The position numbers and the translations under genes were made by a program. Below, one piece after another: positions 63,181 to 63,441 of a stretch of 64,000 nt of DNA. The notes under the pieces are model-generated. The model was not told the origin of the DNA. It saw nothing but the letters and a program-made list of their open reading frames with translations, and ran no database searches. Every line of letters starts with the position of its first letter. The first letter of the stretch is position 1. This DNA is from an uncultured Clostridia bacterium. GTDB lineage: Bacteria > Bacillota > Clostridia > TANB77 > CAG-508. Location of the stretch: NCBI GenBank assembly GCA_947625685.1, contig CANQPK010000001.1, forward strand, positions 36,535-100,534, written 5' to 3'.

Positions 63181-63226
63181 TCGTTTTCCTTCCTTTCCTT
63201 TCCTTTTTTTATTTTATATAACAAAA

Positions 63227-63273
63227 GGGCACACAAAACTTATACTTTAATTAAGTATAAGTCCTGTGTGTCC
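63227..63273 (-). terminator. leader hairpin + U-tract (attenuator-like) of locus 2
   Basis: On the minus RNA, GGACACACAGGACUUAUACUU-aauua-AAGUAUAAGUUUUGUGUGCCC is followed by UUUUGUUAUAUAAAAU. It sits between the leader ORF and the A2 RBS. Confidence 0.55.
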
Positions 63274-63364
63274 TTATATTATCTTTTTCTTCTAATATAT
63301 TATGTGTGTGTGTGTGTGTGTGTGTGTGTGTGTGTAGAGCCTCTAAGGTTCTAGCTTCTCTCAT
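63251..63364 (-). CDS. leader peptide ORF of locus 2 (MREARTLEAL-(HT)5H-NILEEKDNIRTHRTYT), containing the (CA)16 tract
   Basis: GGAGGAG RBS 8 nt upstream of ATG 63364-63362. The N-terminal decapeptide is conserved with locus 1. The stop TAA at 63253-63251 lies in the loop of the terminator hairpin. Confidence 0.5.
   Translation of the reverse strand: MREARTLEALHTHTHTHTHTHNILEEKDNIRTHRTYT
63303..63334. repeat. (TG)16 dinucleotide microsatellite
   Basis: A perfect 32-nt TG repeat inside the leader ORF. The homologous position in locus 1 is (TA)5(CA)3. Confidence 0.95.
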
Positions 63365-63412
63365 CTTTCGTTCTCCTCCAAAATTCACATTTTAACTTAT
63401 GTGTTTAATTTT

Positions 63413-63441
63413 ATTGTAGGATATTTTTCGTTAATAGTCAA
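63413..63441 (-). promoter_or_regulatory. sigmaA promoter of locus 2 (TTGACT-17-TACAAT)
   Basis: Minus -35 at plus 63436-63441 and -10 at plus 63413-63418. Confidence 0.55.

Follow-up and report, generated by a model that had tools for sequence, protein, structure and literature searches.

A dinucleotide repeat in a leader ORF as a candidate phase-variable transcription attenuator of a surface-protein operon in an uncultured Clostridia bacterium

What does a leader with its own promoter, a short open reading frame (ORF) and a terminator-like hairpin do in front of genes for surface-type proteins? The question arises at one locus (here, Locus 2) of the window, that is, the whole 64,000-nucleotide stretch that we analyzed from an uncultured Clostridia bacterium (GenBank assembly GCA_947625685.1, contig CANQPK010000001.1, positions 36,535 to 100,534). 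The initial annotation, made from the letters alone, had described on the minus strand a promoter, a leader peptide, a terminator and the start of an operon, and these parts were all recovered. The sigma-70-type promoter (63413 to 63441) is present where it had been placed, with TTGACT at 63441-63436, a 17-nt spacer and TACAAT at 63418-63413 (score of 10/12). Such hexamer pairs are not significant alone in this AT-rich DNA (24 sites versus 22.3 expected by chance); we call the promoter because its position and spacing are the same in a paralogous leader of the window (Locus 1) and in the relatives L002 to L005, and not because of the hexamer score. Ca. 10 nt upstream of the -35 box, the motif TTACAAATTA is conserved in five copies of the terminator type defined below (window 63442-63455 and 45313-45330; L002 to L004) and might serve as an UP element or bind a regulator. 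Downstream, on the same strand, the Shine-Dalgarno (SD) sequence GGAGGAG (63379-63373) lies 8 nt ahead of the ATG (63364) of the leader ORF (63364 to 63251), which has 37 codons plus a TAA stop (63253-63251), encodes the peptide MREARTLEALHTHTHTHTHTHNILEEKDNIRTHRTYT and represents the long frame, predicted to be the ON state. Gene finders had called small ORFs of the same family in other assemblies (P0001 to P0007). The ribosome-binding site and start of the first structural gene are likewise in place, as a purine-rich SD region with the ATG of gene 1 at 63180 (63204 to 63178), and the promoter scan was empty for the interval from the terminator to this start.

The operon comprises three genes on the minus strand. 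Gene 1 (63180 to 62650; 176 amino acids [aa]) has an N-terminal membrane helix anchor and a sub-threshold match to the FxLYD domain (NF038353, 21.9 bits versus a cut-off of 23), for which its paralogues reach 23.5 and 25.4 bits. Gene 2 (62611 to 60665; 648 aa) starts with a prepilin-like hydrophobic N-terminus (GITLVALIITIIIL), whose N_methyl match of 17.4 bits lies under the 21.2 cut-off, and continues with weak Ig/FN3-like matches. Its final ca. 130 residues (60665-61060) form a Cys/His-rich tail with a repeated C-x-HG-x2-S-x-HT motif, for which no family match was found, and the protein was absent from the collection used for the exact-protein look-up. Gene 3 (60633 to 60079; 184 aa) is a paralogue of gene 1 with the same FxLYD domain. 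A hairpin followed by a T-run (60046 to 60012), read by eye at a place where the terminator scan was silent, closes the operon before a groES promoter and its CIRCE heat-shock operator. Judged by these domain matches, the downstream genes encode surface-type proteins and not biosynthesis or resistance functions.

The unit appears to be accessory. The window GroEL falls into the same 90%-identity cluster as the GroEL of the rabbit-gut metagenome-assembled genome (MAG) GCA_947629765.1, in which (L046 5380-5600) pyrG has its own terminator and is followed directly by the groES promoter and CIRCE. The leader and the three genes (about 63450 to 60010) are absent from this MAG and are therefore an accessory insertion. 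The window pyrG lacks a terminator upstream of the leader hairpin. The contigs recovered by a groES look-up end short of the leader.

We then asked how well the terminator stands up as an RNA structure. Annotated as a 21-bp stem, the hairpin (63275 to 63225, minus strand) was found to contain 22 pairs and one A.C mismatch, with the 5' arm at 63275-63253, the loop AAUUA at 63252-63248 and the 3' arm at 63247-63225. The stop of the leader sits in the loop as had been noted, the T of the TAA being the last base of the 5' arm and the AA belonging to the loop, and the U-tract UUUUGUUAU (63226-63218), present in all terminator-type relatives, directly follows the stem. When the minus-strand RNA was folded, the hairpin was predicted at -32.2 kcal/mol, compared to -8.9 ± 2.4 for shuffled sequences (z = -9.75); the whole 243-nt leader gave a z of -6.5. 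A scan of positions 59000 to 64000 with Rfam 15 for curated cis-regulatory RNAs produced only chance microRNA-like matches on the hairpin (23 to 24 bits versus thresholds of 95 to 100).

Conservation was evaluated in a terminator-type set of ten distinct sequences (Locus 2, Locus 1, L002 to L005, L007 to L009 and L015). All of them have an A-tract ahead of the stem and a U-tract after it. In the MAFFT alignment of the ten copies, 93% of the cells of a 23-pair helix are paired, compared to only 34 to 66% in slid controls; five helix pairs show changes on both sides, in 12 cells, and the observed covariation score was reached by 0 of 500 shuffles. The peptide encoded by the stem varies along with it (RTHRTYT, RTEETYM or RTHKDLYV). 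Since the encoded residues change with the stem, it is the RNA structure and not the peptide that is maintained in the 5' arm. In silico, an intrinsic terminator is thus predicted between the leader and gene 1, and the geometry agrees with the earlier suggestion that a ribosome translating the leader up to the loop would occupy the 5' arm.

A feature absent from the initial annotation lies within the leader ORF, namely, a perfect (CA)16 tract (63334 to 63303, minus strand; 16.5 copies with 100% matches at 63335-63303 according to Tandem Repeats Finder). It is the sole dinucleotide tract of such length in the window and accounts for the HTHTHT stretch of the leader peptide, in which 6 His and 5 Thr codons follow one another. 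Because the CA unit has 2 nt, every gain or loss of a unit changes the frame of the leader. With n = 1 mod 3, as in the window (n = 16), no stop codon occurs for 50 nt beyond the repeat, and the leader ends inside the hairpin loop. The two short frames stop within 63302 to 63292: with n = 0 mod 3, at a TAA (63302-63300) 1 nt after the repeat and 24 nt before the core stem, and with n = 2 mod 3, at a TAG (63294-63292) 9 nt after the repeat and 16 nt before the core stem.

The number of CA units varies between nearly identical sequences. The search for exact copies of the gene 1 protein gave a single metagenome contig (L001), which over 933 aligned nt differs from the window by 2 substitutions and one indel of 16 nt (8 CA units fewer). 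Its (CA)8 puts the leader into the TAG frame, with the stop 16 nt before the stem; this is the sole strain-level comparison at Locus 2 and comes from a low-coverage contig (coverage of 3.6) of a kind in which short-read repeat lengths can err. Three more pairs of cassette copies, with flanks 100% identical over 400 nt per available side, also differ in repeat number, with 15 versus 8 units in L029/L040, 14 versus 13 in L006/L025, and 15 versus 9 in L041/L044. Given that pairs with identical or near-identical flanks differ in this way, (CA)n is far more mutable than its surroundings, and such hypervariability is, by these sequence comparisons, the signature of a contingency repeat. A role of the tract as a promoter-spacer element was rejected (it lies ca. 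70 nt downstream of the -10 box, inside an ORF). Slippage of RNA polymerase or of the ribosome on (CA)n was also weighed and had no observation in its favor.

The Locus 2 element is probably a phase-variable transcription attenuator, in which n mod 3 sets the read-through into the surface-protein operon. Transcription would start ca. 7 nt after TACAAT, and ribosomes would load at GGAGGAG/ATG and translate the short leader with its (CA)n tract. Slipped-strand mispairing at replication would add or remove CA units of 2 nt and shift the leader among its three frames. With n = 1 mod 3, the ribosome would cover or unwind the 5' arm, the terminator could not form, and RNA polymerase would enter the three-gene operon (ON). 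In the two short frames (n = 0 and n = 2 mod 3), translation would stop at the TAA or TAG, respectively, and the 22-bp hairpin and U-tract would form and end transcription (OFF or low). The window (n = 16) is thus predicted to be ON and L001 (n = 8) to be OFF. We infer from the anatomy and its conservation that the hairpin terminates transcription, that the reach of the ribosome controls termination, and that switching takes place within populations. In at least some Firmicutes, transcription and translation are loosely coupled, and in Bacillus subtilis at least, RNA polymerase outruns the ribosome, which would weaken an antitermination mediated by ribosomes.

The paralogous leader, Locus 1 (45312 to 45113, minus strand), has a promoter with the same spacing (TTGAAC-17-TATAAT, 45312-45284), an SD and an ATG (45238) like those of Locus 2, and an identical 21-mer, GCTAGAACCTTAGAGGCTCTA. 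It precedes a similar operon, with a 154-aa FxLYD protein, not on record in the exact-protein look-up, followed by a prepilin-like Ig-domain protein. Here, only a degenerate (TA)4(CA)3 is left of the repeat, and the 17-codon leader has its stop (45187-45185) ahead of the hairpin, i.e., it is in a short frame. The hairpin (45168-45122, followed by a U-tract) is kept via G-U and other changes (-23 kcal/mol, z = -5.8). The large gene downstream, in the same region (41961-45312), is broken into three ORFs that overlap or adjoin (44596-43016, 43092-42454 and 42434-41961); no homopolymer is present where it breaks. Taken together, Locus 1 seems to be a copy in decay.

In order to place these two leaders among their relatives, we ran k-mer, protein and pattern searches, which recovered ca. 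35 further copies of the cassette. The exact 20-mer GCTAGAACCTTAGAGGCTCT was found, among one genome per species, only in two MAGs of uncultured Clostridia from the rabbit gut (L002 and L003) and had no match in the metagenome collection. A protein query with a 45-aa version of the leader (GTG start) matched seven ORFs called by gene finders, of the form x(2-8)-[A/N][R/V/K][T/S]LEAL-(HT)n-. The pattern GAGGCYCTA(CA)6 gave 20 genuine metagenome copies and 3 more in viral contigs; 12 of the 32 metagenome matches were discarded as chance hits, being GC-rich or eukaryote-like microsatellites. The cultured-phage collection gave no informative match to either the leader or the phage-type cassette.

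In every genuine copy, the SD-preceded ATG lies a whole number of codons from the repeat (10, 11, 12, 13/16 or 14), and in every family member it is in frame with the CTA codon adjacent to the repeat. This constant spacing in whole codons indicates that the segment is read as codons. The 18 nt upstream of (CA)n (window 63352-63335) are conserved at the nucleotide level, as AGA/GTA ACC/AGC YTW GAG GCT CTA, in bacterial and phage copies alike. Conservation includes third codon positions and C-ending codons, which are unusual in an AT-rich genome, while the parts downstream are unrelated. A test for synonymous changes found third positions as conserved as the others, a comparison in which the search patterns bias the last three codons. 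Selection on the peptide before the repeat is not demonstrated, since third positions are equally conserved, and some constraint other than the peptide appears, from this nucleotide pattern, to act on the segment.

Along similar lines, the frames after the repeat follow a common design. In the ten terminator-type copies, one frame remains open for 50 to 64 nt up to the hairpin loop (through the hairpin in L008), and in nine of them the other two frames stop 1 to 11 nt after the repeat; in Locus 1, they stop after 8 and 21 nt. The copies found by DNA searches are free of ORF-length bias, the protein-search copies being biased to the long frame, and the terminator-type copies among the former have one in the long frame (Locus 2) and five in a short one (Locus 1, L001, L002, L003 and L015).

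Two of these relatives have peculiarities of their own. In L002 (1-70, minus strand), a sequence beginning with GTGCGACGGGCATGTCG directly follows the U-tract of the terminator and is similar to group II introns at their 5' end. The contig runs out after 65 nt, and on a piece of this length Rfam did not confirm such an intron. Class C group II introns insert after terminators, so that an intron here, if confirmed, would argue independently for recognition of the hairpin as a terminator. L003 carries a second cassette copy with (CA)7 (7440-7535), on the same MAG contig as the first and ca. 2.2 kb downstream of it. What follows the repeat there bears no relation to the terminator type, and the contig stops after a further 43 nt. 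A gene of the Replic_Relax family lies upstream of the first copy.

Could the leader instead sense a signal? In attenuation of the trp/his/erm type, formation of the terminator would depend on how fast the ribosome moves along the leader or on whether it stalls, for example at the His/Thr codons or in the presence of an antibiotic. A leader ORF does precede a terminator, and the uninterrupted His and Thr codons, a by-product of (CA)n, are reminiscent of the his and thr leaders. However, apart from weak local pairs, the terminator is the sole structure in both the minimum-free-energy and the centroid fold of the 243-nt leader, and a ribosome stalled at His or Thr codons would leave the terminator free, so that starvation would turn surface proteins off, a response that makes no obvious sense. 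None of the downstream genes is a biosynthetic or resistance gene, the His/Thr run varies in length between near-identical sequences, and the repeat puts the leader out of frame in most of the DNA-search copies. We consider signal-responsive attenuation very unlikely at Locus 2. The erm/trp-like logic that the initial annotation had attributed to the leader is not borne out either: no antiterminator pairing is predicted, the cargo is of the surface type, and a ribosome that translates the whole leader always ends in the hairpin loop, with no need for a stall.

A promoter, a short ORF and a terminator would by themselves make a complete unit, so that the leader might be a stand-alone small gene (for a peptide or a small RNA), with a hairpin that may also terminate pyrG, a neutral repeat polymorphism and an operon expressed independently. 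The pyrG of the window, as seen above, lacks a terminator before the hairpin, whereas that of the relative without the operon has one, and in L003 the next gene begins ca. 240 nt after the terminator. Against this, in the window, L005 and L007 the gap to the next start is a mere 30 to 50 nt and SD rich, without a promoter-like site, and at Locus 1 and in L005 the upstream gene has a separate terminator, placed before the leader promoter. Moreover, one protein family, with a GITLIALIITIIIL N-terminus, recurs in linkage with the cassette, and the two short frames close at once after the repeat in almost every copy. A stand-alone gene is therefore an unlikely account of the leader, and control of the operon is the reading that we retain.

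The cassette is not confined to leaders with a terminator. Phage tail and tail-fibre modules carry an SD-ATG-...LEAL-(CA)n ORF with n = 9 to 18 (L006 5001-5174, L014, L018/L045, L021, L025, L030, L035, L036/L043, L010 868-966, L038 and L041/L044). Their neighbors match PHROG tail and tail-fibre families as well as Pfam Gp10_C. In these copies, no terminator follows; the longest frame overlaps the start of the next gene (TTGCCTAA in L006, ATGA in L010), and predicted hairpins sequester GGAGG boxes or the start codon. These features suggest a translational-coupling read-out. A third group (L019, L020, L022, L027, L029, L033 and L040), which includes human-gut assemblies, precedes genes for proteins that share a GITLIALVITIIVL N-terminus, and its long frame ends inside the 5' arm of a ca. 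100-nt hairpin that ends in CUAUCUUUUUG.

These other read-outs bear on what the hairpin of Locus 2 does. The same frame switch might be read post-transcriptionally, with the 22-bp helix acting as an RNase III or stability element or as a translational barrier. A stem of this length is unusual for an intrinsic terminator and has the size of an RNase III substrate, and the phage copies appear to use translational coupling and not termination. On the other side, a U-tract directly after the stem and an A-tract before it, in all terminator-type copies, make up the canonical layout of a terminator, and the SD of gene 1 is unsequestered in every predicted fold. A post-transcriptional read-out thus seems quite unlikely, and we keep to termination as the step controlled at Locus 2.

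Taken across the three groups, the start of the leader (SD, ATG, ca. 10 codons up to L-E-A-L, and (CA)n) might be a portable, previously undescribed phase-variation cassette with interchangeable read-outs, serving surface-protein operons of gut Clostridia and phage tail-fibre modules; we put this forward tentatively, at somewhat less than even odds. Frame-dependent reach of the ribosome would then act on a terminator here, on a ca. 100-nt hairpin in the second bacterial group, and on the unmasking of a start codon or SD in phages. If so, host surface genes and phage receptor-binding genes would switch stochastically via one module, and the presence of the cassette next to tail-fibre genes hints at stochastic switching on both sides of the phage-host interface.

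The attenuator proposed for Locus 2 would matter in its own right. In the searchable literature, phase variation through a repeat in a leader plus a terminator is documented only for the pili of Streptococcus gallolyticus, and an unrelated (CA)n version would show that the design evolved more than once and is used by poorly known anaerobic gut bacteria. It would also show how a whole operon can be switched without ever damaging its proteins. The value of n mod 3 would offer a simple sequence rule to predict ON/OFF states from metagenomes, where genome annotation usually ignores such upstream ORFs and repeats or treats them as assembly noise.

How does this element compare with known systems? 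The trp, his, thr and erm/cat attenuators share with Locus 2 a translated leader before an intrinsic terminator, with the position of the ribosome deciding the folding. They sense charged tRNA or an antibiotic via stalling and antiterminator helices, whereas Locus 2 would rely on a heritable change of frame, and no alternative helix is predicted there. In the contingency loci of Neisseria (opa, CTCTT) and Haemophilus (tetranucleotide repeats), the repeat lies inside the structural ORF. As proposed for Locus 2, slippage at these repeats toggles the frame, and the targets are surface proteins (partly from the discussion in PMC3894217). In contrast, the repeat of Locus 2 lies in a separate upstream ORF, so that the structural proteins would never be truncated and the whole operon would be switched transcriptionally. 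Within the Clostridia, the surface-protein gene cwpV of Clostridioides difficile has a phase-variable terminator in its 5' leader, controlled by recombinase-mediated DNA inversion. The location of the terminator in the 5' leader of a surface-protein gene is common to both; inversion and the lack of a leader ORF or repeat set cwpV apart from Locus 2.

The closest counterpart is found in S. gallolyticus, where the leader-peptide ORF of pil1 and pil3 contains GCAGA repeats and is followed by a stem-loop terminator and the pilus operon (Danne et al. 2014, PMC3894217). Leaders that stop 28 to 39 nt upstream of the hairpin give low expression; expression is high with leaders that stop immediately upstream of it and with longer, frame-shifted leaders whose stop lies in the hairpin or past it (PMC3894217). 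Mutants of the start codon and the stop codon and deletions of the terminator established that a translating ribosome prevents the terminator from forming, and the system was functional in Lactococcus lactis as well (PMC3894217). The initial annotation had stated that the gene family has no described regulation. This must be qualified, as a repeat leader with a terminator has been demonstrated experimentally for pil1/pil3 (PMC3894217); our full-text literature searches found neither a (CA)n leader switch nor a repeat-leader and terminator mechanism outside S. gallolyticus.

We propose the same mechanism for Locus 2 because its features match the S. gallolyticus system point for point. Both have a promoter, an SD/ATG leader ORF with a repeat unit that is not a multiple of 3, and a stem-loop terminator that separates this leader from an operon for surface structures. 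In both, the short frame ends before the hairpin and the long frame within or beyond it, the repeat number differs between strains, and each genome has two paralogous loci. The short-frame stops lie 16 to 24 nt from the stem here, compared to 28 to 39 nt in S. gallolyticus. Being nearer to the stem than in the S. gallolyticus OFF state (at least 28 nt), they may allow some leakage, in particular in the TAG frame. The mechanism has been proven by mutagenesis for pil1/pil3 and is predicted from sequence for Locus 2. The hosts are an uncultured low-GC Clostridia lineage and Streptococcus, respectively; the cargo is made up of FxLYD-domain and prepilin-like/Ig-domain proteins in the former and of sortase pili in the latter, and the repeat is a dinucleotide, (CA)8-16, as opposed to 13 to 23 copies of GCAGA. 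The leaders are not homologous, with unrelated repeat units and flanks, so that the relationship, as far as sequence comparison tells, is one of mechanism and not of descent. Unlike pil1/pil3, the LEAL-(CA)n leader start is a conserved cassette that also occurs in phages, coupled there to other read-outs.
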